Assembly: GCA_964520645.1 (NCBI GenBank)
Contig: CAZFND010000002.1
Location: 9,424 to 73,423 of the forward strand
DNA: 64,000 nt
Direction of reading: 5' to 3'
Origin: an uncultured Candidatus Saccharibacteria bacterium
Lineage (GTDB): Bacteria > Patescibacteriota > Minisyncoccia > Phycocordibacterales > JAKAEA01
The notes under the pieces were generated by a model. It saw only the letters and a program-made list of their open reading frames with translations. It ran no database searches and had not been told where the DNA came from. This document shows positions 13,109 to 47,192 of this stretch, in pieces. Made by a program: the position numbers and the translations under genes. Numbering within the stretch: position 1 is the stretch's first letter; each line of letters starts with the position of its first letter.

Positions 13109-14209
13109 TTATTTGTTTATAGGCATCACGAGATACATAAATGACTTATCATTCACTCCCCTCATAACCAATGGACGGGTGAGGCCATTAAACTCCAATG
13201 AGACGCTGTCAGACTCAATCGACTGTAAACAATCTATGATGTATTTGTAATTAAAGTTGATATCAATATCTTCTCCTTCATATACAGCCTCGAGAGCATT
13301 GGTATTTTCACCAACATCTGCATTTTTTGTCGCTAACTCAAAACTTTTTTCACTTGGGTGAGCTTTTATTGTGAGTTTATTAAACTTATCTGAGAAAATA
13401 GTAGCGATTTTGAACGCATTAGCTAAATCTTGCTTCAAAACAACAATATTGGTTTTGTAATCTTTTGGAATGATTTGTTTGTAATCCGGAAATACTCCAT
13501 CCACTATTCGAGATGTAAGATAAATACCATTGTAGGTAAATGAAATTTGGTTTTTTGTTAGAACAACATCAATATCCCCTTCTGCTGCATCTAAGATTCT
13601 TAGAATATCAGGAACATTTTTTACTGGAATAAGAAGAGAAGTGATATCTTTTGCTCCTTTAGACTTTACTCGCTTCTCTGCAAGACGGAATGAGTCTGTA
13701 GCAACAAAGAGTAGTCCTTCATCATCTGAGTAAATATAAATACTTGAAAGCTCTGGCTTCATACTTGATGTCGCCGAGCTATACCACACAGCTTTAATCC
13801 CCTTCACAAACTCTTTCGCATTGAGTTTAAATGATTTTTCATGTTCAAGAATTGGAATAGTTGGAAAATCTTCAAAGTTAATAGATTTAATAACTGTTGT
13901 ATTGGTGTCAGTAATAATTTTTAAATTATTATCCACAACTTCGAGCGTAATATTTTTTGAGCCAACTATATGAGACACGAAATTATTTACGATAGCTCCT
14001 GGAACGGCAATTCTGCCCTCCTGTTCAACTTTAACAGGTATAACGATCTCTATACCCAAATCAAGATTAGTCGCTCGAATTATGAGATCGTGGCCCTTCG
14101 CTTCAAATAAAATACAACTCAATACTGGTAGAGTAAGATTTTTGCCAGTAATTTTTTCTGCCTTACTTATTGCTTCTGCCAACCGTTCTTTCAGACATTC
14201 TATCTTCAT
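13109..14209 (-). CDS. dnaN: DNA polymerase III beta sliding clamp
   Basis: 366 aa, three-domain clamp pattern, directly downstream of dnaA. Confidence 0.85.
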   Translation of the reverse strand: MKIECLKERLAEAISKAEKITGKNLTLPVLSCILFEAKGHDLIIRATNLDLGIEIVIPVKVEQEGRIAVPGAIVNNFVSHIVGSKNITLEVVDNNLKIITDTNTTVIKSINFEDFPTIPILEHEKSFKLNAKEFVKGIKAVWYSSATSSMKPELSSIYIYSDDEGLLFVATDSFRLAEKRVKSKGAKDITSLLIPVKNVPDILRILDAAEGDIDVVLTKNQISFTYNGIYLTSRIVDGVFPDYKQIIPKDYKTNIVVLKQDLANAFKIATIFSDKFNKLTIKAHPSEKSFELATKNADVGENTNALEAVYEGEDIDINFNYKYIIDCLQSIESDSVSLEFNGLTRPLVMRGVNDKSFMYLVMPINK

Positions 14210-16480: not shown

Positions 16481-17194
16481 ATGACACACGGATTTTTTGC
16501 CACATTATTTTATATACCTATCTATAACGTTCTTATTTTTGTTATTAATTCTATTCCCGGCCATAGTGCAGGAATCGCTGTTATTGCTGTGACGGTTATT
16601 ATTCGTCTTGTGCTCTACCCCCTTTCTCGAAAATCTATCAAAACACAGCTTCAGATGCGTCAGATTGAGCCGGAAGTTCAAAAAATTAAGGAAAAGGTAA
16701 AAGATCGCCAAGAACAAGCTCGTCAGCTCATGCAGCTTTATAAAGATAAAGATGTAAATCCATTTGCAGGATTATTCCTTATCCTCATTCAGTTCCCTAT
16801 TCTTATTGGACTCTATCGAGTTTTTATTAGTGGTTTGCCAAAGATCGATGCAACACTCCTCTATTCATTCGTTCATATGCCAGCATCTGTAGGAATGACC
16901 TTTCTTGGCATCAATTTAATGCAGAAGAGTATTATTGTCGCTATTCTTACGGTTATCACTCAATTTATTCAGCTCAATCTTGCGCTTCCTTCTGTTAAAA
17001 AAGGAGACGATGCTTCATTTAAAGGTGATCTTGCGTATAGTATGAATATGCAGATGAAGTACATCTTCCCACTCATTATCTTCCCTATTGCTTATATTTC
17101 TGCCGTTATTGGTCTTTACCTTCTTACAAGTAATATCTTTATGATCTTCCAAGAACTCTACGTACGGAAGACACTTAAGAAGCACTATAAATAA
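16481..17194 (+). CDS. yidC: membrane protein insertase YidC (short form)
   Basis: 237 aa multi-TM protein with YidC/Oxa1 core; rpmH-rnpA-yidC synteny. Confidence 0.8.
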   Translation: MTHGFFATLFYIPIYNVLIFVINSIPGHSAGIAVIAVTVIIRLVLYPLSRKSIKTQLQMRQIEPEVQKIKEKVKDRQEQARQLMQLYKDKDVNPFAGLFLILIQFPILIGLYRVFISGLPKIDATLLYSFVHMPASVGMTFLGINLMQKSIIVAILTVITQFIQLNLALPSVKKGDDASFKGDLAYSMNMQMKYIFPLIIFPIAYISAVIGLYLLTSNIFMIFQELYVRKTLKKHYK

Positions 17195-18436
17195 TTATCG
17201 AGTAGTTGTAGCTGTTGAAGTACTAAGTTTGTAGCTCCACAACGTTGAATCTTTTTTGTTGGTAAAAAGGAGATAATTTTCACTATCACTAAGTATTGGG
17301 TTTATTACATCTATACTCTGCTTGTATGCACCAGTAAGGCTTACAATAAGTTGTCCTAGTCCTGTTACGGCGTTTATTTTATAAATGTCATCAGTAAATG
17401 AGACTCTTCCCTGGTACCAGTTGTTAGGATATGTTCCTTCGGGAATAGATGTTGGAATTCCGCAGTAAATAATATTCTTTTCTTTTGTAGACCATACACA
17501 CTTTTCGCTCAAGGTGTTCACAAAAGCTCCCTGAGAAGATCCGGTTTTTATAGTATAGAAATAAAGTCGTGCTGTATCATTTGAATATGCAACTGTAGAG
17601 AGTGAGGGGTTTGCTAGTGTTGTAAGACCAGGAACTCCACCTAGTACTTTTTTAACTGTACCGCTCGTAGAAAGGAAATACATACTTCCTGGTACACCTG
17701 ATGCAGCCTTAGATGTAAGTGCAATTGTATTATCTGACGGCCATGAGGCAAGCCACTCTCCTACAGGAGAACTCCATATTTGAGAAGAAGCTCCCTTTGC
17801 AGAAATAAGTATCCCTCGCGCTCCCCCACTAGTAGTGGTTATATAAAACATCTGTGTCTTTTGAGGAGAAATAGCAAGATTATCAATATTTGTTGACATC
17901 AATGTGCCTTTCAATTCGTTTTTAATAGTTGTGTCTGGAGATGAGCTACTTGTTTTTACTAATTGTGCGTTTAATGTATTAATTACCTCATTATCTGACA
18001 CATATCGTAATACGGTGGTGCTTCCATTATTCATCCAGTATGATTCTTGAATTTTTGGAATTGTAGTATTTGAAATTTTTGTCATTACACCAGTCACTAG
18101 ATCTACATCAAAAATATGACTTGAAGCAAGATCTGCATAGCGTGCTTTAGTTGATGTTTTTGTTTCAAGAACGATACCGTTGCCTGCTGGTTCGGTAGAG
18201 AGATGCATAAGTGCATCTACGGGGATTCTTAGTGTTGTATCTCCACGTACTCCCCCATTATTTTGCCCTGTACCACCATTATTTGTAGCATTACCAGAAC
18301 TACCAAATGGTAAATCGGTATTTGCTTGGTCTAGTGGTGTCTTTGTTGTTGTCTTTTTAAAAAATAAAATATACACAGATACACCGACTGCTAGTACAAA
18401 GAATATGAGACTGATAATAAGTATTTTTTTGAGCAT
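17195..18436 (-). CDS. membrane-anchored beta-rich protein (last gene of T4SS-like operon), function unknown
   Basis: N-terminal TM helix, Gly/Asn-rich linker, S/T-rich beta-rich ectodomain. Confidence 0.4.
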   Translation of the reverse strand: MLKKILIISLIFFVLAVGVSVYILFFKKTTTKTPLDQANTDLPFGSSGNATNNGGTGQNNGGVRGDTTLRIPVDALMHLSTEPAGNGIVLETKTSTKARYADLASSHIFDVDLVTGVMTKISNTTIPKIQESYWMNNGSTTVLRYVSDNEVINTLNAQLVKTSSSSPDTTIKNELKGTLMSTNIDNLAISPQKTQMFYITTTSGGARGILISAKGASSQIWSSPVGEWLASWPSDNTIALTSKAASGVPGSMYFLSTSGTVKKVLGGVPGLTTLANPSLSTVAYSNDTARLYFYTIKTGSSQGAFVNTLSEKCVWSTKEKNIIYCGIPTSIPEGTYPNNWYQGRVSFTDDIYKINAVTGLGQLIVSLTGAYKQSIDVINPILSDSENYLLFTNKKDSTLWSYKLSTSTATTTR

Positions 18437-18440
18437 ATAT

Positions 18441-18857
18441 TTAGAGTTTGATATTGAGTAAGTCGGGTATTCTTGTTAAATCTGGATTAATTGTAGTTAA
18501 GAGTAGATATGAAATAGCGATAAGGAGCATTCCCCACAATGTACGCTGAATAATTGTCTTCCCCTCCAGTTTATTAGAGTATGCATCAGTAGACATATAA
18601 AGAAGCCCGCCATAAATAATAACAACAACAGCAAGTATTGATGTGATACCGATAGCAATAAAGAACATTGCTCGGATATATCCTGGCAAATCTGTAGGAA
18701 CAGGATTGCCCGTATTGTCTTTTATTGGTGCCAAAGGAACGTATGTTGTGTTATCTAATGCTGTTTGTGCCTGAGCAGTTCCAATAAGAATAGTATTAAA
18801 CAAGACTAAGCTGAGCAGTGCTACCATTCCCCATTTTTTTGAGATAGATGTCATCAT
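18441..18857 (-). CDS. VirB2/TrbC-like pilin candidate
   Basis: 138 aa: signal peptide (…GTAQA-QT) then two hydrophobic helices separated by a short polar loop, the architecture of T4SS pilins; found within VirB4 operon. Confidence 0.35.
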   Translation of the reverse strand: MMTSISKKWGMVALLSLVLFNTILIGTAQAQTALDNTTYVPLAPIKDNTGNPVPTDLPGYIRAMFFIAIGITSILAVVVIIYGGLLYMSTDAYSNKLEGKTIIQRTLWGMLLIAISYLLLTTINPDLTRIPDLLNIKL

Positions 18858-19888
18858 TGTGCCTTAAAATTCATTGTTACCCCGCTTCCTGCATACTGAA
18901 GCAATCCTGTTGGAGATTTTATAGAAACACTTACGTTTGATGCCCCACTTGTTCCTTGAGGAGGACGAAGAGTAATCATGTTTGTGCTATTTACTTGAGA
19001 TACAGGACTGCCGTTAATTGACCAGCTGTAATTGAGAAGTGTACCATCGTGAGCTGTTGGTGTACTAAAGTAGTATGGTGCAGCTTTTACTCTAATTTCA
19101 GCGTTCTTCAAATCATATGATGATCCCAATGCTTGATTGTAGCGTGTACCATAAAGTGGATTGTCTTCGTACATAAGGACTACAGGAGCTTGAGGGTTAA
19201 TACTTACACGTCCAATACCTGAGAAACTTACAGCAGAATCTGCTGATGTTACTTTTACAGAAATGTTAAGTGGTCGTAGGATAATAGATCCTTGAAGGCG
19301 AATACTGTCTTTGCCATATCCAGAAGCTGAACCAATAACACCGCTATCAGTTTCCCAGGTGTACACAAGCGTTTTGGGATCTGCCATTACTCCATTGACT
19401 ACATAATTTGGGAGAGCTGCTACGGTGATTTCTCCTTGGTATGGGAAAAGTCCCTTCCCTTTATAAAATGGTGGTGTATATGTATGTGCATCCCACACTA
19501 GATCTACTTCAGCGGGAGAAATAGTGATAGTTTTAATGATTGGAAGTCCAGAAGATGTAATAATTGCTGCCGCAACTTCCTTTGTTGTTCCATTTGCTCC
19601 CGCTTGTACTACTACTGAGGTAAGTCCCTTCCCCGAGTTGATCTTAGTACCATTTATAGACCATATAATTGTCGTGGTATTTAGATCAATAGAAAAACTT
19701 TTAATACTAACTGTTGTATTTTGATTTGGTTTAGGAAATTCAGGATTTATTTGAATAGTAACTGGATCATTACCCGGCAATACTTGTGCCTGGGTACTTG
19801 GAGCAACAACAAATAAGGATAGAGCTATGAAAATTCCTATGACAAACGTGGTTTTGATGTTCATGGGAAGAATAATTGTTCTATACAT
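18854..19888 (-). CDS. secreted beta-rich protein, unknown function (T4SS-like operon)
   Basis: Signal peptide …APSTQA-QV; Ig-like/beta-sandwich composition. Confidence 0.4.
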   Translation of the reverse strand: MYRTIILPMNIKTTFVIGIFIALSLFVVAPSTQAQVLPGNDPVTIQINPEFPKPNQNTTVSIKSFSIDLNTTTIIWSINGTKINSGKGLTSVVVQAGANGTTKEVAAAIITSSGLPIIKTITISPAEVDLVWDAHTYTPPFYKGKGLFPYQGEITVAALPNYVVNGVMADPKTLVYTWETDSGVIGSASGYGKDSIRLQGSIILRPLNISVKVTSADSAVSFSGIGRVSINPQAPVVLMYEDNPLYGTRYNQALGSSYDLKNAEIRVKAAPYYFSTPTAHDGTLLNYSWSINGSPVSQVNSTNMITLRPPQGTSGASNVSVSIKSPTGLLQYAGSGVTMNFKAQ

Positions 19889-19932
19889 TATACTATACCT
19901 TCTATCTATAGCACTGTGTATTACGTATTACC

Positions 19933-20391
19933 CTACTCTGCGTTTTTTCGGGGCACGGTAGCTATTCTTCCTGATGTACCCTGCACAGTGTTTCTGTTGG
20001 GTTTTATGCTTCGCTCGGTGATACCTGGTTGTTTATTATAAATAGCCTGAGTTTTATTTAATGCCTTTTCTCCCATCGGGATTTGTTCTTTTGCTATCTG
20101 TTCTCCATTAATAATAAGAATATTCAACAACACACCCAATGTAATTTCGGGTAGTATACTGAGAATAGGAATAAACCCAATAATAAACGACACCACTACG
20201 CTACCCATAAGTTTATTATTTTTTGTAAAAGGAAAACCTAATTCTCTAAACCAGAAAAAGAAAATAAGCCATGCGAGTACATCAACCACAATGTTTACTA
20301 TTGGAATGAGGCTTATAAGATCAAGCACAGCTGCAGTACAGATCATTGCTAATGCTGTTACGGTAGATATTTTTTTTACTGAGTTACTCAT
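19933..20391 (-). CDS. small polytopic membrane protein (T4SS-like operon)
   Basis: 3-4 predicted TM helices; 4 bp from VirB4 stop. Confidence 0.4.
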   Translation of the reverse strand: MSNSVKKISTVTALAMICTAAVLDLISLIPIVNIVVDVLAWLIFFFWFRELGFPFTKNNKLMGSVVVSFIIGFIPILSILPEITLGVLLNILIINGEQIAKEQIPMGEKALNKTQAIYNKQPGITERSIKPNRNTVQGTSGRIATVPRKNAE

Positions 20392-20393
20392 AG

Positions 20394-22190
20394 TTATGAC
20401 GTCATGTCTTCCTTTGCCTTCTTAATTGCAAGAATTTGAGATGGGTCAGAGGTAATAATTTGATCCTCAGTATATGAAGCAATGATCTTAATGGCGACGT
20501 GCTTTACACCTGCAAAGAAAATTCCCTCCCCCACTGCAGATTCAAGCAACAAATATTTTTCTTCGTCAGTAAGACTGAAGGTTTGTTGAAGTTTGTCTAT
20601 TGATGATGGAGATTGCTTAAGGAGAAGCTGGATAGATGAGTTTGTAATAATAGGAAGTCCGTATGGAGACTTAAGGAAATCATCCACGTCTTGAGTAATT
20701 GTCGCAAGACCGAGGTAATACTTTCGTCCTCGCTTAGCAAGACCAAGCAAGAATGATGCGGTATCTTCTGATTTCATCATCCACCATGCTTCATCAATTA
20801 CGAGCAATCGCTTCTTAATATTCTTTCGAATAGTGTTCCAGATATAGTGAGTCACTATATACATAGCAATAGGCTTAAGTTCATCTTCCATGTCTCGTAC
20901 TGAGAAGACTATGAACTTTTTGTTCATATCTACGTTTGTTGGCTGATTGATGAAGCCTGACCAAGTACCCTTTGTGTATTTAGAAAGTCGCTGAACGAGT
21001 GATCCCCCTCCTTCCATACCACTCAATACCATTTCAAAGTCAGAGAGAAGTGGTGGTTCGTTTTTTGAGAAATCACTTTCTGACGTAATGTCTTTGAGTG
21101 CATATGTTTCGGTGATAGCACGGTCGATAATAGCATCTTCTTCTGGAGTGAGGCCTCCCATCATAATGCGGAAAAGGCCTACAAGATTAATAATATTGGA
21201 TCGCAATACACTTGCTGGAGATTCATCTGGTCCTATAGGAGGAAGATCGAAGGGATTGATGTGGTGTTCTGAGTTAAGAGATATGTTGAAGTAGCGCCCC
21301 CCTGTTGCCTCAGCGAGGTATTCGTATTCTCGTTCTGGGTCAATAACAATAACTTCAGTATCAAACATGAGGGTTCGGAGAATTTCGAGCTTTGTTGTAT
21401 ATGATTTTCCAGAACCTGACTTGGCGAAGGTAATGGAATTGTAGTTTTCGAGAGAAAATCGATCAAAGAGGACCAAGCTTGAGTTGTGACGATTGATTCC
21501 ATAGAGTATTCCCCTATCTGACGTAAGGTCAAATGATACGAATGGGAATAAACTTGAAAGTGGAGATGAATTGAGCTTTGACGTCACAGCTAATTCATCA
21601 TTCAAGAGCGGAGTCATTGTTCTAAATCCTTGTTCTTGTTGGAAAAGTGCAGGCTTTACGTAAATAAGCTTAGATTCAAGCATTGATTTTATTTCCGACT
21701 CTACTTTATCCAATTCTGCTTCTGAATCTCCATAAATAGAAATATAAAGCCCAACATCGAAGAGCTTTTCTTGTGCTTGTTGAAGCTGATCTCGAAGATT
21801 TTCGAGGTCTTGGTAGGCGGTGTCGAGCATTGGGTCTCGGACGAGGCCCTTCTCTTCTCGAATAGATATCTGACTTTGTACTTCAGCTACTTTTTTCTGA
21901 AATTGTCTCAATACTGCTGCTGTTTCGATGGGATTGATATAAATAGAAACGTCGAAAATCTTATCAAGATTGATAATAGGAGAAAACCAACTTTCCATAA
22001 GAAAGCGTGGGTATGAAATAACGAAGAATGTTCGTACTATTTTTTCTCCCAAGTTAAGAGACTTTGGAGATACCTTAAGTGCAGATGGTGCAATAATATC
22101 CTTTAATTCAAGGGCAGCAGCTTCATACATCTGATTTGGAAGGAATTGAAGTGGTTCTTCTTTCTTTTTTAAAAAATCAAAAATACCCAT
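20394..22190 (-). CDS. VirB4/TraC/CagE-family conjugative ATPase (ATPase portion)
   Basis: Walker A FAKSGSGKSYTT, VIDPEREY, Walker B LLVIDEAWWM, TQDVDDF; AAA_10-type domain. Confidence 0.8.
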   Translation of the reverse strand: MGIFDFLKKKEEPLQFLPNQMYEAAALELKDIIAPSALKVSPKSLNLGEKIVRTFFVISYPRFLMESWFSPIINLDKIFDVSIYINPIETAAVLRQFQKKVAEVQSQISIREEKGLVRDPMLDTAYQDLENLRDQLQQAQEKLFDVGLYISIYGDSEAELDKVESEIKSMLESKLIYVKPALFQQEQGFRTMTPLLNDELAVTSKLNSSPLSSLFPFVSFDLTSDRGILYGINRHNSSLVLFDRFSLENYNSITFAKSGSGKSYTTKLEILRTLMFDTEVIVIDPEREYEYLAEATGGRYFNISLNSEHHINPFDLPPIGPDESPASVLRSNIINLVGLFRIMMGGLTPEEDAIIDRAITETYALKDITSESDFSKNEPPLLSDFEMVLSGMEGGGSLVQRLSKYTKGTWSGFINQPTNVDMNKKFIVFSVRDMEDELKPIAMYIVTHYIWNTIRKNIKKRLLVIDEAWWMMKSEDTASFLLGLAKRGRKYYLGLATITQDVDDFLKSPYGLPIITNSSIQLLLKQSPSSIDKLQQTFSLTDEEKYLLLESAVGEGIFFAGVKHVAIKIIASYTEDQIITSDPSQILAIKKAKEDMTS

Positions 22191-22191
22191 A

Positions 22192-22842
22192 TTAGCTTAA
22201 TTTAATTGGTTTTTCGGTCTCACCAGGATTGAAAAGCTTGTAAAATAGTTCGACTACTTCTTCGGTACCAAGCTGTGCGACACGGATACCGCAGCGTGTT
22301 AATCCTTGCTCTACTACAGAAATACGCTCTTCAAGCTGTGCTCTACTCTCTTCAAAGAGTTCATCATCCTTTTTTCGTGCCGCATCCCCTTCCTTCTTTT
22401 TAAATGGATTAAGTGAAAGTGAAGAAGCTCCTGTCTTAAGAAGTGCGGGAGAATATGGAATCACAATAAAGAAACTTTTTGTCATGATATTGGTAGTGTC
22501 TGTAAAGTTCTTGATGAATCCAATATATTCTTGTGTTTGGATTTTCATGAGGTCAGATGCTTGTTTCTTTTTTCGTTCTTCAAGAAGCGCAATATAAGGA
22601 GCAATATTGAGTCGGCGAGATTCGATGAATATTTGGATCGAGAAATCGAGTGAGTTTAATAAATCCTGAAATTGAGTCAAAATAGCTCCCTGCTCGTCTT
22701 CTGACTTAAGCGCAAAGTTGAGAGATGAAGCAAGAATAATAGCTCGCATTGAGCCGTCTTTAAGAATAGCCAAGCCATCTCTAATTTCTTTTATCGGTAC
22801 AAAATCTTGTGTTGATTTTCCAGCAAGAGGTGCCATATTCAA
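22192..22842 (-). CDS. VirB4 N-terminal domain encoded as separate ORF (split virB4)
   Basis: 216 aa with Gram-positive VirB4 N-terminal pattern (PIKEIRDGLAILKDGSMRAIIL…). Its stop TAA sits 1 nt before the ATG of the ATPase ORF; combined length 814 aa matches full VirB4. Confidence 0.5.
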   Translation of the reverse strand: MNMAPLAGKSTQDFVPIKEIRDGLAILKDGSMRAIILASSLNFALKSEDEQGAILTQFQDLLNSLDFSIQIFIESRRLNIAPYIALLEERKKKQASDLMKIQTQEYIGFIKNFTDTTNIMTKSFFIVIPYSPALLKTGASSLSLNPFKKKEGDAARKKDDELFEESRAQLEERISVVEQGLTRCGIRVAQLGTEEVVELFYKLFNPGETEKPIKLS

Positions 22843-22884
22843 TTATTGTATCACTACTTACTATGAATCCCCAGTGAATATCTT

Positions 22885-23319
22885 TTATTCTTCTTCAGGT
22901 TTTTGTGCTGGGGCAGTCCCCTTTGTGTCGAGACTCCATGTCATATCTTTCAATTTGCTATTAGAAATATTTGGGATAATAGAATTGGGACTGTTTGTGA
23001 AATTTACAGGGATACTTTTGGTAACCGTTTCTTCTTTTTTTCTCCAGATATAAAGCTTAGGACCAAAGTAATACGTAATTGCTGATTCGACGACAAAGAT
23101 GAAGGGTTTGTTATTTACTTTATAGAATGCTAACGCTACTGCAAATGCAGCAACAGGAATTATCAGCAAGATTGCTAAATAGAAAGAGATTGGAGATACT
23201 GAGAGATAAATAATCAATGACAACCCTGCCCCACCGATAAGGTAGATAAACTGACGAAATGTTAATGGGCCGAAGATTTTGTCTTCAACTTCAATAAATT
23301 GAGGAACTTGGTACTTCAT
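22885..23319 (-). CDS. PrgI/TcpE (VirB3-like) family membrane protein
   Basis: N-terminal …EDKIFGPLTFRQFIYLIGGAGLSLIIYL… followed by two TM helices, the PrgI-family architecture; immediately upstream of virB4. Confidence 0.5.
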   Translation of the reverse strand: MKYQVPQFIEVEDKIFGPLTFRQFIYLIGGAGLSLIIYLSVSPISFYLAILLIIPVAAFAVALAFYKVNNKPFIFVVESAITYYFGPKLYIWRKKEETVTKSIPVNFTNSPNSIIPNISNSKLKDMTWSLDTKGTAPAQKPEEE

Positions 23320-23348
23320 ATAACCTTATTTTCTCATGAGGCTTACTT

Positions 23349-24095
23349 TTATTCAATCACTTCTCGATACGGATCTTTATTAAGGAGTTCATTACGAGGA
23401 GAACCACTTGGCAATTCTGCATTGTGAGGAGCTTGTGGAAGGTTTTCAGGGATCTTCACGTCTTGTTTTGGCATACTTGTTGTTGCGCTCAGTCGAGTAT
23501 TCATAATAGAAGGCGCTGCTGGGGTCACAGGTCGAGTGTAAGCTGTGGTTACTTGCTTTAAGGGAGTAATATTCTTTACTGCTTGAGCAACATCCTGTGC
23601 GGTAAATTGTGGTTTTGGCGCAGTAGTCATTTGGCTAGGAGTTGAGATAGGCTTTTGTACTTGAGAAAGAAGAATAGATGGCGCACTCTTTTGTGTTTGT
23701 GGCGCGCTCGGTGTGCTATATGTCATCTGAATCTTTTGAGCGTTCATTGCTTGGATAGATGTGGGAGTGGGTTCAGTCTTCTTTGCCTCCCCTTCGAGAA
23801 GTGTATGTGCTGGCGCTAGAATGACATTACCTACATCAAGTACTACACTATTTGCATCTTCAGGGCTTACTTTATAGAGAGAGGTAAGATTTTGTGTAAA
23901 TTCTGTAATTGAGCTTACGCCAACAAGGAGAGCAAATATATTTTGTGAGAATGCATCAAATATAGAATCATCAATTCCATACTTCCCTGCTATAGCGTCT
24001 ACAGACTCTGCTACTTCATCTGACATGATGAAGTCTTGCAATGTGCCAGGAAGCTTTTGAAATGCATCATTTAGTTGTGTTTGAGTGTAATTCAT
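23349..24095 (-). CDS. hypothetical protein with globular N-domain and Pro/Thr/Gln-rich disordered C-terminus
   Basis: ORF in operon; low-complexity composition. Confidence 0.4.
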   Translation of the reverse strand: MNYTQTQLNDAFQKLPGTLQDFIMSDEVAESVDAIAGKYGIDDSIFDAFSQNIFALLVGVSSITEFTQNLTSLYKVSPEDANSVVLDVGNVILAPAHTLLEGEAKKTEPTPTSIQAMNAQKIQMTYSTPSAPQTQKSAPSILLSQVQKPISTPSQMTTAPKPQFTAQDVAQAVKNITPLKQVTTAYTRPVTPAAPSIMNTRLSATTSMPKQDVKIPENLPQAPHNAELPSGSPRNELLNKDPYREVIE

Positions 24096-24101
24096 AGTGT
24101 T

Positions 24102-26690
24102 TTAACCAACAAAATTATTTGACGGTGGTGTCTGAGGTGCTGGTTGTGGGTTATTTGCTGCTGTTTGTGTAGGTGCGGGTTGAGGAGCCGCCGCAGGTGC
24201 TGCATTTGCTGTTTGGTTAGTTTGTTGTGCTGTTGGGTTATTGAGATTGATCAATTTATCACGAGTCTCCTTACTTATTTTTTGATTTTTAGTAATAGCT
24301 AAGATATCTTGTTTATCAAAATATTTATTAATTTTAGGGTTCAAAAGAAGATCAGATGGTAAGTCCTTAAGAAGATTTTGCTCAATTTTTTGAACGTCCT
24401 CAGCTTTAATTTCCTCACCTTTTACAAGTTTGTCTCTAAGTTTATCTTCTGCTGCAGCAAGTTTTTCTTCCTGATTAAGTTTCTTTGATCGTGTCTTATC
24501 AAGGAAGTCTTGAGCAGCTTGCTTATGACCTTCTACTGTACTTCTAAATCGAACATTAAATCTTCCAGGAGTTGCTAACTGAGCAGCATACTTTTTCTGT
24601 TCCTCTTCTATCTCTCGTGCTTTTGCTCTCTCATATGATTTAAGCTTGGTTTCTGCTTCCTTAATTGCATCTGTACGTTTTTTGAGTTCTACAGGATCAG
24701 TTACTCCATTTGCTACAACTTCTGTATAATCAGATTTTGCTTTCTTTATAGCTTCTTTACTATTTGTAATATTCTGTAGAGTTTCATCTGAAGCCTTGCC
24801 TACACTTAGAATATCATTTTCTCCTTGCTTCTTACGTGTTTCTAATACAGCTTTATATCCCCCTACCCCAGTATTAGTATTCAAGCCAAATTTTTCTCCT
24901 GTCTTTGTGTTTCGAGCGTCAAAGCTTGCTTTAGCAAGTTTTTCGGCAGTGGCAAGTTTTGCTTCAGCTGTTTTTCGAGTTATTGCATTTGCTGAAAGCG
25001 CATCTTTTCTCCATTGTTCTTCATTACTCTTTAGAGTTGTAAGAGCTCGTTTACCTACTGTATTACGCAATGCTGCTGCTGTAGCGCCGGCTGTTGCACC
25101 TCCTGCTGCACGTTTAGAGTATGAAGTAATTCTGTCTGTTCCCCACTTTCCTACTGTACCCACTATTGCTGCACCTTGAGTTGCATAGCTTTTTGCAACA
25201 TTTGTTGCCACATGAATGAAGACGATAACAAGAATAAAGTTGATCACAATACCCGTGTTGCTACCCACAGAGTCTACATTGAGTGCGTCGGAGAACCCGC
25301 CACTTGCCCCCGTCATTTTCTTAAGATTATCTAAGAGTATAAAGAGTACCCAGAAGAGTGCCATAAAGAGAGGAGCAAAAATAAGCTGGCCCATGAGGGT
25401 ATCCCACCATTTTTTTGCTGTTGCCTGAGTTGCAGGGAGCGTCCACGCCACAAAGGCTATAGGAGATAGAACAAGAAGGACAATAAGGACGACAAATCGT
25501 AGGACAAACAACCAGGCAATAGTAAGAAACGTAAATGCTGTAATAAGCATGAAGACAGATCCTCCTATAGCAATAAGAAATATCTTGTCATAGCCTGTTT
25601 GTGCGGATGCTTTTGATGGATCAAGCCCCATTCCTCCGTAGATAGTTGCAAGGCCAACTGAGTTCATGATTTTTCCTCCAAATCCTTTACACTGAACGCC
25701 TGCAAATTTCTCACATGCATATTGGGTGTTTTGGTCTACTGCGAGCGCTCTATAAAAACCTAGGGTTACAATGTTTGAGGCATCGATTGCTGCTTTTGTA
25801 AAAAAGAGACTGAAGTTAATAAGAAGACCAATAATAATTATTTTTATAAGAGTGTTTTTTGTTGCCCCAGTCAATCTTCCTAGGATAATAAGCACGGTGA
25901 TATACAGCAGGGCAAAAATAAATATCATATTTGCTAGATCTCGAAAAACTGTCCAGGCTGTAGTGATTGAAGGTGCTCCTTTTATAAACTCAGCCATGTT
26001 AAGGACAGTATATGTAAGGATTTGGTTTAGAATAAGAGCACAGAGGCCAAGTATGTATCCACAGAGTGTCAGGATAATATAAGCAACTCCTGCAACAACC
26101 TGCTTTACACATATCCACCAATTGATAAATGGAATTCCATAACTAGTACCAAAACATACGTTTTCTTGAGATGATTTTGCATTGCTGACATCTTGTTGTG
26201 TTGCTGCGTTTCCATTATTTACCTGATTGTTGTGTGCTTGAGCAGCAACTAAATCTGTGTTTGCACCAGCATAATCTCCTTGCTGAGCCTTATTTATTGC
26301 ACTATCACTAAGAGTTTGCACCTGAGTTGCTTGTCCTTGTGCTAGGGTTACTTGCCTATTTGCCGAATCAAGGGCTCGTTGAGCATTATCACAATTAGTG
26401 TTTGTTGTACACGCAGTTCCACTGAGGTTTGGGTATGCATCACGAGCTTGTTGTGCATTATTTGCAACTATTTTTGCATTTTGTAGATTTGTATTTGCAG
26501 TTGCAACTTGTTGGGCAGCAGCAGCTTTTATTTGATCAACTTTTACTGTATCAACTTGAGGTGTGGGTGTTGAGGGTTGTGTTGTTTGAGCTTCTGCTTG
26601 ATTTAATAAAAGTGTAGAGAAGTTGAAAGGCGCAGCAAAAGTGCTGATGAGAAGAAGTGCTGTAAATAATGATGTAAGTATTTTTTTCAT
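24102..26690 (-). CDS. VirB6/TrbL-like polytopic membrane protein with Q/A/N-rich N-tail and charged coiled-coil plus P/Q/A-rich C-tail
   Basis: 862 aa; signal peptide, ~7-8 TM helices in residues ~180-520, long K/E-rich helical region, terminal PQ-rich repeat. Confidence 0.5.
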   Translation of the reverse strand: MKKILTSLFTALLLISTFAAPFNFSTLLLNQAEAQTTQPSTPTPQVDTVKVDQIKAAAAQQVATANTNLQNAKIVANNAQQARDAYPNLSGTACTTNTNCDNAQRALDSANRQVTLAQGQATQVQTLSDSAINKAQQGDYAGANTDLVAAQAHNNQVNNGNAATQQDVSNAKSSQENVCFGTSYGIPFINWWICVKQVVAGVAYIILTLCGYILGLCALILNQILTYTVLNMAEFIKGAPSITTAWTVFRDLANMIFIFALLYITVLIILGRLTGATKNTLIKIIIIGLLINFSLFFTKAAIDASNIVTLGFYRALAVDQNTQYACEKFAGVQCKGFGGKIMNSVGLATIYGGMGLDPSKASAQTGYDKIFLIAIGGSVFMLITAFTFLTIAWLFVLRFVVLIVLLVLSPIAFVAWTLPATQATAKKWWDTLMGQLIFAPLFMALFWVLFILLDNLKKMTGASGGFSDALNVDSVGSNTGIVINFILVIVFIHVATNVAKSYATQGAAIVGTVGKWGTDRITSYSKRAAGGATAGATAAALRNTVGKRALTTLKSNEEQWRKDALSANAITRKTAEAKLATAEKLAKASFDARNTKTGEKFGLNTNTGVGGYKAVLETRKKQGENDILSVGKASDETLQNITNSKEAIKKAKSDYTEVVANGVTDPVELKKRTDAIKEAETKLKSYERAKAREIEEEQKKYAAQLATPGRFNVRFRSTVEGHKQAAQDFLDKTRSKKLNQEEKLAAAEDKLRDKLVKGEEIKAEDVQKIEQNLLKDLPSDLLLNPKINKYFDKQDILAITKNQKISKETRDKLINLNNPTAQQTNQTANAAPAAAPQPAPTQTAANNPQPAPQTPPSNNFVG

Positions 26691-26693
26691 CGT

Positions 26694-28709
26694 TTATTTT
26701 ACAATTACCGTTCGAATCGCCGTAGTTGCTGGTAATCCCCCACTGTCCTTCACGTCATAATTGATGACATACGTACCCGGAACTGTTGTATTTACTGTAC
26801 CTGTTACTACTACTTGCGCAGTGAGTGTTGCTTCGTCATCAGTCTCATCCTTTGCCACATATCCTGGTTCTGTGAATGTTGAGTTCAGTGGAATTGTCAT
26901 CTGGGTTTGTCCTTTCAAACCTATAATTGGAGGGTTGTTAGCAAAGACTTCCATTTCGGGAATAGTAAGATATTCAACTTTATTATATGTAGATTGAATT
27001 CGAACATAGCGTCCTTTTATATTTGGGGGAAGATTAAGGGTATATGGATTTTGATAGTTTTGTATGAGAACATCACTTGTCCAAATAGGCAGTGCACTTC
27101 CTCCTGAACGATTTCCCTGACTGTCACTTGGTGCAGTGTCGAACACTTGAACAACAAATGTAAGTTTCGTACCAAGCCCATATGACCATGGGTCATGTCG
27201 CTGATAAACAACAATTTTACTGAGGTCAAATAGTTTGTTCAAATCTACTTCAATCCATTGAGCTGGATTACTAGGAGGTCCGAAATATTCATTCATTGGT
27301 CCTGTATATCCTACATATGCTTGCCAATCTGCTTGATCACCATTTACAAGTTTTGAAGGATAATAACCATTACTACCGCTATCTTTACGGATACTTGATG
27401 CATATACTGATTTATTTAGTGCAACATTCACCTGAGGTTGGACATATGTTGATCCACTAGGAGTACTAATTGCTATATCTTCTGGTTTATATGATTGAAC
27501 TTGGTTAACATTATCCTGATAAGTATTGTATGAAGAAGAACAAGCAGCTTGAGCATCATTGGTAATCTGACCTATATTAGTATTAGATGATGAAGTTTGT
27601 TTACATGCTGATTGAAGGACTTGTTGTACAGTAGGTGGTGTGTGTGTACCTCCCCCTCCTCCTGAAGAGCGATTTGCACCAAGCAATCCCCCAGCACCAC
27701 TAATAACTGTCTGGAAGAGTTGGTTGGCAAGAGCATTAAAGATTTTATCAAGATCATCTGCAAGGCCAAGCTGCTCAGCGGGTACATCGAGCTGATTTTG
27801 GAGTGTGCCACCAATCACCTTTCCTGGTGTTTGTATCTGGCAATCATCTCCAGGAGAGCGTCCTCCAAAGCTTGCATTGTTACCTGCTACTCCAAATGAT
27901 CCTGATCCTCCATATTGGTTATAGCTTGTTCCATCTGCTGATGTACATTCTGACCATGAAAGGAATCCCCCACCCCAACTAAGTTTTGCAGCTTCAATTC
28001 CTTGTCGGCCACCAATTCGAGCACCCATTTTTGACGATGCTTTAAGGTAACTTCCGTATGGATTGTTATTATCACTCACACTAATTTTAAACCAGTCATC
28101 CCAGGTTTGTTGTTCGAAGTTGGTGATGGCACCATCAATGTTGTTGAGAACTTGTGTGAGTGTACAACGTGGAGTCCCAGGACCTTCTGAACCGTATGAA
28201 TAATCGAGCGCAAGTTGAAGTTGAATTTGTAGTTTAAATGGACTACAGAGAAATGCGAGATCAGAGCCCAAGATGAATTCTCCAGCAATTTGGTCTGCTA
28301 TATCGAGGGCAAATTGGCCGGGATTGCTAATAAATGCGGGTTTACCTTCAAATCCAGAGTTGATCCAAGTAACGATTTGCTGAGTCATTTGTTGAAGGAT
28401 AAATTTTCCAATTGCGAGAGCTAGACCGTGCTCGATACAGTCCTTCATGAGTGTTGATTGACTTGCTCCTGCTTGGGCTCCAGAGGTAAAGATCTGTCCA
28501 GCAGCAGATACTGGTACTGAGAGTGCTGCTGCGGCAGCAGATGCAGTAGTGTTCAATCCTACCGCTGCAAAAAATTGTGGAAGACAACTTGAGAAGCCGG
28601 CTTCTGCCTTTTTGGGTGGCATAGTAAGAAGACTAAAAGGCACTACAAGTATAATTGCGAGGAAGAGGCTTATTATTTTTTTATACATTGATACGTGCAT
28701 ACTCTCCAT
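26694..28709 (-). CDS. large secreted protein with discoidin (F5/8 type C)-like and C-terminal DUF5011-type Ig-like domains
   Basis: Signal peptide; region …QWIEVDLNKLFDLSKIVVYQRH…GRYVRIQ resembles F5/8-type-C; C-terminus …TVPGTYVINYDVKDSGG…RTVIV resembles DUF5011. Confidence 0.45.
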   Translation of the reverse strand: MESMHVSMYKKIISLFLAIILVVPFSLLTMPPKKAEAGFSSCLPQFFAAVGLNTTASAAAAALSVPVSAAGQIFTSGAQAGASQSTLMKDCIEHGLALAIGKFILQQMTQQIVTWINSGFEGKPAFISNPGQFALDIADQIAGEFILGSDLAFLCSPFKLQIQLQLALDYSYGSEGPGTPRCTLTQVLNNIDGAITNFEQQTWDDWFKISVSDNNNPYGSYLKASSKMGARIGGRQGIEAAKLSWGGGFLSWSECTSADGTSYNQYGGSGSFGVAGNNASFGGRSPGDDCQIQTPGKVIGGTLQNQLDVPAEQLGLADDLDKIFNALANQLFQTVISGAGGLLGANRSSGGGGGTHTPPTVQQVLQSACKQTSSSNTNIGQITNDAQAACSSSYNTYQDNVNQVQSYKPEDIAISTPSGSTYVQPQVNVALNKSVYASSIRKDSGSNGYYPSKLVNGDQADWQAYVGYTGPMNEYFGPPSNPAQWIEVDLNKLFDLSKIVVYQRHDPWSYGLGTKLTFVVQVFDTAPSDSQGNRSGGSALPIWTSDVLIQNYQNPYTLNLPPNIKGRYVRIQSTYNKVEYLTIPEMEVFANNPPIIGLKGQTQMTIPLNSTFTEPGYVAKDETDDEATLTAQVVVTGTVNTTVPGTYVINYDVKDSGGLPATTAIRTVIVK

Positions 28710-28712
28710 GTA

Positions 28713-29714
28713 TTATCCAACTAAATGGGCAAACGAATACCCTGGCTCCCCTTGCCCAAAGACTATCCCCTGTAATTTAAAGTATAAATTTACTGCCTGG
28801 AAAATAACTCCAGTATCCGTTGCTACATCTTGATATCGCTTTACTGCAGCAAGTGTAATAACAGGATCCTTGAGGAGCTTAGCAAGACCTTGATCTACCT
28901 CTATTACCTGGCTGAAATTATTGAGGATATTTATGTGAAGTGATACCGCACTACTTGGAACAGGTACGGAGAGAAATCCCTTAAGCATATTTTGGTATGA
29001 TGTGATGATTGCATTTAGTTGGGCAATATCCTTTGGATCTTGGCTATCAACTGCGCGTTCAATAATAATCAATTCATTTTCAGGATTTTTGGGAGCGTTA
29101 GTCAAAATGACTTGGCCCATTGCATTGCCATATGCGCGAAGTGCATCAGCAGAATTTGAAGAATCGATTCTAAAATCTTTTTGGGTGTATGTTTTTGCAG
29201 ATGAAACACCAAATGTAGTTCGTCCGATGATATTTGCTGCTATTTCTTCTTGAATTTCAGGTGTAATGTTTCCACCAGTCTTGCGAAGACTCATATAGTC
29301 ACTAAATACTTCTCGAGCGAGTGCTTGAGTTGCTGTTTCATCTTTTGATGAAGTAGTTGTTGTGGCTGCAGTTGCAACAGTTGATCCCCCATTATTCTTA
29401 TCTTTAGGACCTTTTACAAGAGGGTTTCGCTCAGCTTTTATTTCTGCACCATCTGATGTGCCGTCTCCATCTGTGTCAGCCTTACGAGGATCTGTACCAA
29501 TGAGCACCTCTTCCCAGTCAGGAAGACCATCATTGTCTGAATCTTTTGTATTTACCTCAGTTTGAATATTATTTTCAGGAATTACTGAAAGAATTTGTTG
29601 TCGTGAACTTATTGTTGTAGATTTTGGAGAATAAAGAGCCGCAAAAACAATACCGCCTACTGCAGCCACACATGCAATAATGATTGGTATAATTTTTTTT
29701 GAAGGTAAGGCCAA
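28713..29714 (-). CDS. membrane-anchored protein with thrombospondin type-3 (Ca-binding) repeats; first gene of T4SS-like operon
   Basis: N-terminal TM; DSDNDGLPDWEEV…DTDGDGTSDGAE repeats. Confidence 0.45.
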   Translation of the reverse strand: MALPSKKIIPIIIACVAAVGGIVFAALYSPKSTTISSRQQILSVIPENNIQTEVNTKDSDNDGLPDWEEVLIGTDPRKADTDGDGTSDGAEIKAERNPLVKGPKDKNNGGSTVATAATTTTSSKDETATQALAREVFSDYMSLRKTGGNITPEIQEEIAANIIGRTTFGVSSAKTYTQKDFRIDSSNSADALRAYGNAMGQVILTNAPKNPENELIIIERAVDSQDPKDIAQLNAIITSYQNMLKGFLSVPVPSSAVSLHINILNNFSQVIEVDQGLAKLLKDPVITLAAVKRYQDVATDTGVIFQAVNLYFKLQGIVFGQGEPGYSFAHLVG

Positions 29715-45620: not shown

Positions 45621-45692
45621 GCGCCCGTAGCTCAACGGATAGAGTACCGGTCTTCGGAACCGTGGATGTGGGTTCGATTCCTGCCGGGCGCA
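45621..45692 (+). tRNA. tRNA-Arg (anticodon TCG)
   Basis: Manual cloverleaf: acceptor GCGCCCG/CGGGCGC, T-loop TTCGATT, anticodon loop CTTCGGA; 27-43 mismatch lowers confidence in anticodon call. Confidence 0.6.
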
Positions 45693-45782
45693 CAGTATTC
45701 TTTGGAAAAAGAATATAAATAATATATTCGTTTACGAAGTTTTGGCGGGCGTGTCCCGCCGAAGTTCGCAGAGCGAACGTAG

Positions 45783-45853
45783 GCGGGTATGGTTTAGTGG
45801 TAGAATACGTCCTTGCCAAGGATGAGACGGGAGTTCGATTCTCCCTACCCGCA
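45783..45853 (+). tRNA. tRNA-Gly (anticodon GCC)
   Basis: Acceptor GCGGGTA/TACCCGC, anticodon loop TTGCCAA, T-arm GGGAG-TTCGATT-CTCCC. Confidence 0.75.
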
Positions 45854-46214
45854 CAAGCTCAACAAAAAGACGGCCTACAATAGGCCGTCTTTTTGTATAT
45901 GTCTTTGTCCCCACCTCTTTATTAACACTTTCTATATAATTAGCCACAATCCTGTGGAAAACTGTGGATAACTCTGGGGATATGTGTATAAAAGACACAT
46001 GGTAATGTCTTTTGACTTCCCTACCATCAAGTCGTCAATTTGATAAAAGAGCTATATTATTAGCCGTGTTTTATAAGACAGAGTGAGTAATTCAAATACG
46101 TTTCACGTGAAACCATATATTGTGTTATTTATGAAACATTTAAGTTAATTTGATGAAAAATTTATGCCTGTACTAGTACTCTAGAGCTATTAGTAATAGG
46201 TAATAATAAGTTTC

Positions 46215-46640
46215 ATGTCAAACAAAACCAAGCAAAACAAGGGGGATAGGCGCACAAAAAAGCGTAAAATAGGTGATCTAGGGGAGAATATAGCAGTAAC
46301 GTTTCTTATGAAACAGGGTTTTGACGTAGTAGATAGGAATTACTTAAAGAAATATGGGGAATTGGATATTGTGGCTATAAAGGGGGAAATCTATCATTTC
46401 ATAGAGGTAAAGAGTGTTTCATGTGAAAGCTTTCCAGATGTTAATCATGAAACAGATAGCTATAGGCCAGAGGATAATGTCCATGGGTATAAGCTTAAAA
46501 GACTGTCAAAGACAATTCAGGCCTATATCCTTGAGAAACAGGTCTATGAAAGGGAATGGCAGTTTGATATTGCTGTTGTATATCTCAATACAATAACGCG
46601 TACAGCCAGGGTGAAACTCTTAGAAGACATTATTTTATAA
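46215..46640 (+). CDS. yraN: YraN family (UPF0102) endonuclease-like protein
   Basis: GDLGENIAVTFLMKQGFDVVDRNY…GELDIVA…IEVK pattern. Confidence 0.6.
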   Translation: MSNKTKQNKGDRRTKKRKIGDLGENIAVTFLMKQGFDVVDRNYLKKYGELDIVAIKGEIYHFIEVKSVSCESFPDVNHETDSYRPEDNVHGYKLKRLSKTIQAYILEKQVYEREWQFDIAVVYLNTITRTARVKLLEDIIL

Positions 46641-46684
46641 GCTTTTTTTGATATTTCACACTCCTGTGCTAGTATTCATGGAAT

Positions 46685-46757
46685 CGGAGTGTGGTGTAAC
46701 GGCTAACATTCCTGTTTTGGGAACAGGCGACTCCGGGTTCGAATCCCGGCACTCCGA
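46685..46757 (+). tRNA. tRNA-Pro (anticodon TGG)
   Basis: Acceptor CGGAGTG/CACTCCG, anticodon arm CCTGT-TTTGGGA-ACAGG, T-arm CCGGG-TTCGAAT-CCCGG. Confidence 0.75.
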
Positions 46758-46763
46758 CACGTA

Positions 46764-47081
46764 ATGTCTAAAAAGTTTCAAAAGAGGGTAGAGGATTTTG
46801 TGTGTGAGAAATGTGGTTTTGCTATGAAAAGTAATGGTTTTACCAACCATTGCTCACAATGCCTATGGTCAAAACATGTAGATGTTAATCCAGGGGATAG
46901 GGAAGCAGTGTGTGGTGGCCTTATGCAGCCTGTAGATTTTGTAAAGGAGAAGCTCAATTACATGATCACTCATCAATGCACTGTCTGTGGGTATCAGAAG
47001 AGAAATAGGCTTGCTCCAGAGGACAACTTTGATAAGGCTCTTGAAATTGTAAAGAAAAAGGCAGATAAATTGCTAGGATAA
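46764..47081 (+). CDS. RNHCP-domain zinc-ribbon protein
   Basis: FVCEKCG…FTNHCSQCLWSKHVD…GDREAVCGGLM…CTVCG; pattern of RNHCP family. Confidence 0.45.
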   Translation: MSKKFQKRVEDFVCEKCGFAMKSNGFTNHCSQCLWSKHVDVNPGDREAVCGGLMQPVDFVKEKLNYMITHQCTVCGYQKRNRLAPEDNFDKALEIVKKKADKLLG

Positions 47082-47108
47082 TAGTTTTTTGATATAGTAT
47101 TTCTCATT

Positions 47109-47179
47109 GCGGGATTAGTTTAATGGTAGAACTACAGTTTTCCAAACTGTTGGCAGGAGTTCGATTCCCCTATCCCGCA
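47109..47179 (+). tRNA. tRNA-Gly (anticodon TCC)
   Basis: Acceptor GCGGGAT/ATCCCGC, anticodon arm ACAGT-TTTCCAA-ACTGT, T-loop TTCGATT (one A-C mismatch in T-stem). Confidence 0.65.
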
Positions 47180-47192
47180 CAGAAAAACAAAA

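Follow-up and report, generated by a model that had tools for sequence, protein, structure and literature searches.

In the window, a 64,000-nucleotide (nt) stretch of the genome of an uncultured Candidatus Saccharibacteria bacterium (contig CAZFND010000002.1), the ATPase VirB4 of a type IV secretion system (T4SS) is encoded by two consecutive genes on the minus strand, open reading frames (ORFs) 1 and 2. In all likelihood this is a standard origin-proximal T4SS locus of the Patescibacteria, in which the VirB4 motor is specified by a small TrsD-like gene (ORF1) followed by a gene for a 598-amino-acid (aa) protein (ORF2). The coordinates of both genes, their domains and their neighbours are collected in Table 1.

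The division of virB4

The junction was read directly on the minus strand, where the TAA of ORF1 is followed by a single T and the ATG of ORF2 (...AAACCAATTAAATTAAGC TAA T ATG GGT...), ORF2 being shifted to +1 with respect to the frame of ORF1. A TAA lies in the ORF2 frame three codons 5' of its ATG (TAA GCT AAT ATG), and the longest homopolymer near the junction is A5. The initial annotation had reported the 1-nt spacing, the in-frame stop three codons upstream and the lack of a long homopolymer, all of which are borne out by the letters. Its lengths of 216 aa for ORF1 and 814 aa for the sum hold for the mechanical reading frame, which is open from a TTG at 22842 to the TAA at 22194-22192, but to judge from the sequences the true start is probably the ATG at 22836, giving 214 aa and a sum of 812 aa, since the public gene call for a 100% identical protein (P0001) is 214 aa long and the homologues uniformly begin with MA....K.TQ. 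A gap of 1 nt is ordinary for this tightly packed operon, as its other junctions measure -4, 2, 4 and 6 nt.

By its sequence, ORF2 is a VirB4-type T4SS ATPase of the CD1110 family, with predicted roles in ATP hydrolysis and assembly. It scores 375.8 bits (E 4e-112) against the NCBIfam model for CD1110-type VirB4 (NF045971, cut-off 325), of which it covers positions 165-733 of 752, the N-terminal domain being incomplete on the ORF2 polypeptide, and it also covers positions 288-893 of 894 of NF045975. Residues 225-581 match 4AG5, the crystallised C-terminal domain of a Thermoanaerobacter VirB4 (E 3.4e-41), as well as residues 446-735 of TrwK, and the Pfam families P-loop_TraG, AAA_10 and DUF87 are found in the same domain. 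As residue 225 is where the match to the 4AG5-type C-terminal domain starts, the break lies inside the N-terminal domain of VirB4, and not at the boundary between N-terminal domain and ATPase. The original description of the pair as an N-domain ORF plus an ATPase ORF is thus imprecise, since ORF1 is part of the VirB4 N-terminal domain but residues 1-224 of ORF2 still belong to that domain.

ORF1 represents the first ~215 residues, or first sub-domain, of the N-terminal domain of single-chain VirB4, and probably belongs to the already named TrsD/TraD family ('TraC-like' in Pfam). In the NCBIfam profile scan it matched positions 2-118 of 752 of NF045971, positions 102-233 of 894 of NF045975 and positions 13-143 of 201 of the TrsD/TraD model NF041427 (E 3.5e-5, 23.7 bits, cut-off 200). 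The precomputed Pfam assignment PF26593 ('TraC-like') is present on P0001 and on all 120 best homologues; the local Pfam scan did not return PF26593, and its sole match to ORF1 was a sub-threshold one, of positions 134-175 of TraC_F_IV to residues 168-209, collinear with a sub-threshold match of positions 299-351 of the same family to ORF2 residues 120-173. There are more than 7800 homologues of ORF1, the best 120 of which, from metagenome-assembled genomes (MAGs) of Patescibacteria, invariably stand alone and measure 209-233 aa, and a profile search with the ORF1 family in 1.84 billion cluster representatives (50% identity clusters) returned 3021 clusters, with short stand-alone proteins in 149 of the best 150 and a single long protein (P0211, 797 aa) in the remaining one. 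The C-terminus of ORF1 (...NPGETEKPIKL) is conserved among the homologues up to the stop. Profiles and fold comparison were needed to recognise the kinship with VirB4, because ORF1 found no more than chance-level matches (E at least 0.7) when searched by sequence against PDB chains; with Foldseek, the top 14 PDB matches of the ORF1 model were all TrwK/VirB4, with no other credible PDB matches. Some members of the family, such as P0145 (356 aa), P0205 (432 aa) and others of 300-443 aa, carry low-complexity C-terminal tails rich in Pro, Ala, Gln and Thr after the conserved domain; the ORF1 of the window has no such tail.

Conservation of the split in related genomes

We retrieved 80 related genomic loci, of which 79 had downstream DNA and were scored for both genes. 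The split was present in all 79 Patescibacteria loci, which come from different MAGs: a gene of ~212 aa stops, and a gene of ~600 aa restarts at a nearby ATG. The gap between them is 4 nt in 14 loci and 1 nt in 13, while six have an ATGA overlap; the median is 5 nt, 70 of the loci have a gap of at most 30 nt, and the whole range extends from -4 to 481 nt. Relative to ORF1, 40 loci have ORF2 in the +1 frame, 25 in the +2 frame and 14 in the same frame, and the stop codons differ as well. By contrast with this variation, the N-terminus of ORF2 is conserved (M-[SG]-[IFL]-[FL]-[DS]-..KK.....LPQEIY), and the nearest relatives of ORF2 within this set are 70-87% identical. No motif or slippery sequence is shared at the junction among the 79 relatives, and the frame relationship is not conserved. 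As the restart is conserved while stops, spacers and frames vary, a shared sequencing artefact is excluded, as is a shared recoding signal. The split is old and has become fixed in evolution, with a conserved stop or start of its own for each half.

These data leave a practically nil probability that a single virB4 of ~812 aa was divided by an inactivating mutation or by an indel of 1 nt from sequencing or assembly. Breaks of such kinds do occur, as one apparent split in a relative (P0291, see below) is a gene interrupted by Ns, and the fused and split forms on Clostridium plasmids differ by a 25-nt indel, but neither could account for independent loci, obtained in many studies and with many assemblers, that are split with different stops, spacers and frames, for the thousands of ~212-aa homologues of ORF1, or for the conservation of both the ORF2 peptide from its ATG and the ORF1 C-terminus; a homopolymer at the junction is also lacking. 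The chance that programmed ribosomal frameshifting or stop-codon readthrough yields one fused VirB4 is very slight. While the two frames lie close together, with ORF2 at +1, and a covalent fusion is clearly functional in Colwellbacteria (see below), a recoding signal would have to work without a conserved slippery motif, in three frame relationships and over spacers of -4 to 481 nt, and at some junctions across a whole inserted gene. In the window itself the TAA three codons before the ORF2 ATG leaves hardly any room for a shift, and the conservation of the ORF2 ATG and of the peptide that follows it favours independent initiation.

In eight of the 79 relatives the two genes lie 115-481 nt apart, and in four of these a whole gene is inserted. 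The inserted genes (L017:6645-7066, L030:6627-7091, L033:6633-7099 and L063:1497-1978) lie on the same strand between the trsD-like gene and virB4 and encode proteins of ~115-135 aa of Pfam family PF05635, '23S rRNA-intervening sequence protein', a four-helix bundle (E 6e-33 and 1e-35). In DNA sequence, three of the four inserts share 71-74% identity, and those in L017 and L030 are bounded by terminal inverted repeats of 29-33 nt, resembling a small mobile cassette. AT-rich spacers of 115-213 nt with internal inverted repeats were found at L010:6642-6764, L022:1613-1728, L050:6645-6839 and L056:6648-6861, the one in L050 containing an imperfect palindrome of ~115 nt; these may be hairpins, insertions similar to miniature inverted-repeat transposable elements, or terminators.

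Collinearity with single-chain VirB4

The long protein P0211 is a single-chain 'ATP-binding protein' of Candidatus Colwellbacteria, and both window proteins align to it end to end: ORF1 residues 5-211 match its residues 2-214 (39% identity, E 6e-50), and ORF2 residues 29-594 match its residues 230-796 (57% identity). Two further fused proteins gave the same result, with ORF1 corresponding to residues 68-234 and ORF2 to residues 283-842 of an 866-aa plasmid protein of C. sporogenes, and both ORFs likewise collinear with an 858-aa protein of Myxococcus. The two pieces abut on these full-length proteins with no residues missing or duplicated. Together with the two-gene form in every one of the orthologous loci compared, this upholds the initial annotation in its central claim of a genuine two-cistron VirB4 without a sequencing frameshift, and the homology of ORF1 to the VirB4 N-terminal domain on which that claim depended was recovered in profiles, in fused-protein alignments and in the fold.

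The fused Colwellbacteria gene (Table 1) occupies the same context as the split gene of the window, in the order PrgI, VirB4, small ORF, yidC, rnpA, rpmH, dnaA and dnaN. A search with P0211 showed that the fused lineage comprises at least 116 clusters at 90% identity, with proteins of 775-807 aa (P0211 and P0273-P0391), and its named members are Colwellbacteria, Parcubacteria or Patescibacteria. In the fused forms a linker shorter by ~20 residues replaces the '...PIKLS-stop / MGIFDFLKKKEEPLQFLPNQMYEAAALE' of the split form, and the MGIFDFLKKKE peptide is lacking. The one-protein form of the Colwellbacteria is probably a secondary re-fusion, the polarity being putative.

Two proteins of ~600 aa, P0291 and P0387, which are 77-88% identical to the fused lineage, were considered as a recent fission and rejected, as both begin upstream of the junction; the gene for P0291 (L088:1540-1650, GCA_964368705.1) is broken by a run of N, i.e. 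a scaffold gap, which cautions against automated censuses of split versus fused forms. Separately, the C. botulinum plasmid pCBG (L082:4450-4700) and the C. sporogenes AM553 plasmid (L086:3950-4200) are near-identical in this region and differ by a 25-nt segment. In pCBG this segment, AAAAAAAGAATGCTATTTAAAAAGA after GGAGG, brings an ATG at Shine-Dalgarno spacing together with a stop, resulting in proteins of 257 and 620 aa, whereas AM553 without it encodes one protein of 866 aa, a clean interconversion of fused and split forms at a homologous boundary.

An AlphaFold model of the concatenated ORF1 and ORF2, for which the alignment included natural fusions, reached a predicted local distance difference test score (pLDDT) of 73 and a predicted template-modelling score of 0.52, and its match to full-length TrwK spanned 814-898 alignment columns (E 1e-26). 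Around the join, confidence drops over a long stretch only at the junction itself (residues 212-240, pLDDT <50), which suggests that the break is situated in a variable, disordered linker.

How the two products may work together

In the R388 system, VirB3 wraps the N-terminal domain of VirB4, and the N-terminal domains form dimer contacts between VirB4 subunits (PMC9259494). By analogy, the two polypeptides of the window would associate non-covalently into a complete VirB4 protomer, with the TrsD-like piece supplying the membrane-proximal surface that docks onto PrgI/VirB3 and mediating the N-domain contacts between protomers that are seen in the R388 structure. Given the stop-T-start spacing, ribosomes that terminate on ORF1 can probably reinitiate at ORF2, which would keep the two halves near equimolar, and judging by the 1-nt gap a tight translational coupling of ORF1 and ORF2 is plausible. 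No Shine-Dalgarno site for ORF2 was found in the 3' end of ORF1, and there was no such motif at any of twelve start sites in or beside the T4SS operon (17195-29714, minus strand), where the leaders are A/T-rich; because none of the genes in the operon has one, its absence upstream of ORF2 is uninformative with regard to coupling.

Several observations weigh against this picture or limit how far it can be taken. ORF1 scores far under the curated cut-offs of every NCBIfam model that it matches, and an hhalign comparison of the ORF1 family with TrsD of pSK41 was weak (E 0.015, probability 3%). The stand-alone model of ORF1 is of modest quality (pLDDT 67.6) and the concatenated model of moderate confidence only; its global TM-score to TrwK is ~0.39, so the orientation of the domains is unreliable. 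The physical association of the two products is something that we infer from sequences and models, and coupling cannot be obligatory, as the eight relatives with long junctions tolerate 115-481 nt and even an inserted gene. Finally, the long tails of some TrsD homologues hint that the small protein may have gained roles of its own.

The last point leads to a different reading, that ORF1 is an independent accessory factor of VirB4, such as a regulator, chaperone or adaptor, which descends from the N-terminal sub-domain without being a stoichiometric half of every protomer. In the literature TrsD counts as a component in its own right, without an assigned function, and TrsD homologues occur away from virB4 in Gracilibacteria (PMC12102498); the disordered tails, in homologues of up to 443 aa, and the junction insertions, which show that expression can be uncoupled, point the same way, and as VirB3 is bound only by the central VirB4 subunits in R388, an unequal use of the N-terminal module is conceivable (PMC9259494). 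However, ORF2 is without the region that ORF1 supplies and the two do not overlap on any full-length model, a whole lineage has both parts covalently joined 1:1 at the same locus, and the concatenated model follows TrwK collinearly in its fold from end to end. We therefore regard an accessory role as unlikely, and prefer a VirB4 protomer assembled from two chains.

Operon and chromosomal context

The gene directly upstream of ORF1 encodes a PrgI-family protein, which would be expected to partner the VirB4 N-terminal domain and anchor it to the membrane; in addition to its Pfam match (Table 1), this protein has a marginal match to NF045975 (positions 26-125, E 0.025). Downstream, a gene for a predicted membrane protein of 152 aa follows 2 nt past the ORF2 stop, and the Colwellbacteria loci L087 and L088 have a small ORF at the equivalent position. 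The T4SS operon ends at ~17195, where it adjoins the yidC/dnaA/dnaN block; with these genes beside the operon, the T4SS locus is origin-proximal, as reported for many Patescibacteria (PMC12102498). Pfam scans of ORFs of at least 120 aa between 13.1 and 34.0 kb found no relaxase and no type IV coupling protein (VirD4) domains.

Table 1. Features of the VirB4 locus in the window, its surroundings, and the fused gene used for comparison
Feature	Coordinates	Strand	Evidence or remarks
ORF1, TrsD-like, 214 aa from ATG	22192..22836	-	profile, Pfam, fused-protein alignment, Foldseek
Junction: TAA 22194-22192, spacer T 22191, ATG 22190-22188	22188..22194	-	
ORF2 entire, 598-aa VirB4-type ATPase without first N-terminal sub-domain	20394..22190	-	stop included at 20394
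ORF2 residues 1-224: N-terminal peptide MGIFDFLKKKE... and linker, then second half of VirB4 N-terminal domain	21519..22190	-	
ORF2 residues 225-581: VirB4 C-terminal RecA-like ATPase domain	20448..21518	-	4AG5, TrwK, Pfam
Walker A (P-loop) AKSGSGKS, ORF2 residues 256-263	21402..21425	-	aligned to P-loop of 4AG5 and TrwK
PrgI-family (VirB3-like) membrane protein, directly upstream of ORF1	22885..23319	-	Pfam PF12666, E 1.7e-11
Predicted membrane protein, 152 aa, same operon	19933..20391	-	weak DUF4112 match
yidC	16481..17194		Pfam 60KD_IMP
dnaA	14458..15822	-	Pfam Bac_DnaA, E 2e-65
dnaN	13109..14209		Pfam DNA_pol3_beta
Operon protein, 413 aa	17195..18436	-	no Pfam match
Operon protein, 248 aa	23349..24095	-	no Pfam match
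Operon protein, 862 aa	24102..26690	-	no Pfam match
Predicted surface protein, 671 aa	26694..28709	-	F5/8 type C and Ig-like domains
Predicted surface protein, 333 aa	28713..29714	-	TSP3 repeats
Fused Colwellbacteria VirB4 gene	L087:1147-3540		GCA_016192405.1

Unrelated to the split VirB4, the plus strand of the window carries four tRNA genes (Arg-TCG, Gly-GCC, Pro-TGG and Gly-TCC) within 1.6 kb at 45621-47180.

Relation to known systems

A two-gene VirB4 is already known, being the published norm in Patescibacteria and having long-known counterparts on Gram-positive plasmids. In a survey of 3035 Patescibacteria genomes, Quinonero-Coronel et al. 2025 described a monophyletic VirB4 clade nested in MPF_FATA, with T4SSs that are usually chromosomal, often near dnaA and without a relaxase (PMC12102498). 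TrsD is the commonest T4SS component in that phylum, with remote homology to the VirB4 N-terminus, and 1664 of its 2272 homologues there adjoin virB4 (PMC12102498). The window shares with these systems the order PrgI/VirB3, TrsD-like and VirB4, the chromosomal site near dnaA and the lack of a nearby relaxase or coupling protein, and both the best curated model for ORF2, of the monoderm CD1110 type, and its 70-87% identity to the nearest relatives in Patescibacteria are consistent with the MPF_FATA-nested Patescibacteria clade. There is nothing substantively different in the window, which is one more example of the published system; since the arrangement is published and widespread, the locus adds no new kind of system. 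The small additions are the end-to-end collinearity with single-chain VirB4, the position of the break in a disordered linker, and the fused Colwellbacteria lineage in the same locus; neither the collinearity of TrsD plus short VirB4 with single-chain VirB4 nor the Colwellbacteria fusion is stated in PMC12102498.

Among plasmid systems, the staphylococcal pSK41/pGO1 (MPF_FATA, pGO1 subclass) resemble the window in having a VirB3-like gene (TrsC-like in pSK41), trsD and the ATPase TrsE/TraE; in pSK41 a trsD of 227 aa, whose product resembles ORF1 only very distantly, is followed after a 14-nt gap by an ATPase of 672 aa. In staphylococci the system is carried on plasmids, serves conjugation and includes a relaxase and a coupling protein, whereas that of the window is chromosomal and probably non-conjugative. 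Megaplasmids of B. thuringiensis, C. botulinum and Miltoncostaea carry triplets of PrgI, a TraC-like protein (257-337 aa) and a DUF87 ATPase (620-661 aa) with the same order and split position and with gene overlaps of 11-14 nt; their N-terminal fragments are longer and have 21-31% identity to ORF1; the hosts are Bacillota and Actinomycetota, and the loci are plasmid-borne, unlike that of the window. Single-chain VirB4/TraC proteins (TrwK of R388, PDB 7O41 and 8RTD; the CD1110/Tn916 type; Colwellbacteria) are collinear with the pair in sequence and predicted fold, but run on uninterrupted at the point, ~215 residues in, where the window form stops and restarts. In VirB3-VirB4 fusions, such as the ATPase of the Mycoplasma integrative and conjugative element (NF045975) and some of MPF_T, the domain order mirrors the gene order prgI, ORF1 and ORF2, with one chain where the window has three separate polypeptides.

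Significance of a two-chain VirB4

With regard to annotation, the 598-aa VirB4 and the upstream 'hypothetical' protein of 214 aa should be read as one functional unit, and not as a pseudogene or assembly error. The T4SS of Patescibacteria is essential for the epibiotic lifestyle (PMC10633639): in Ca. Southlakia epibionticum trsD is essential, as part of the essential locus SEML1_0006-0019 (Wang et al. 2023, PMC10633639). A detached first N-terminal sub-domain has become fixed in most Patescibacteria and several monoderm plasmid lineages, with a probable reversal in Colwellbacteria, and this detachment may not be neutral. It is a speculative and rather improbable suggestion, made by analogy with R388, that the freed TrsD loads onto a subset of the VirB4 subunits, or is exchanged or regulated independently, and so creates an extra assembly or switching step; if true, a free TrsD would give these pilus-bearing, non-conjugative and essential T4SSs a step that machines with a single-chain VirB4 lack. 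The presence of split and fused VirB4 lineages at the same locus constitutes a natural experiment on the docking of the VirB4 N-terminal domain to VirB3.

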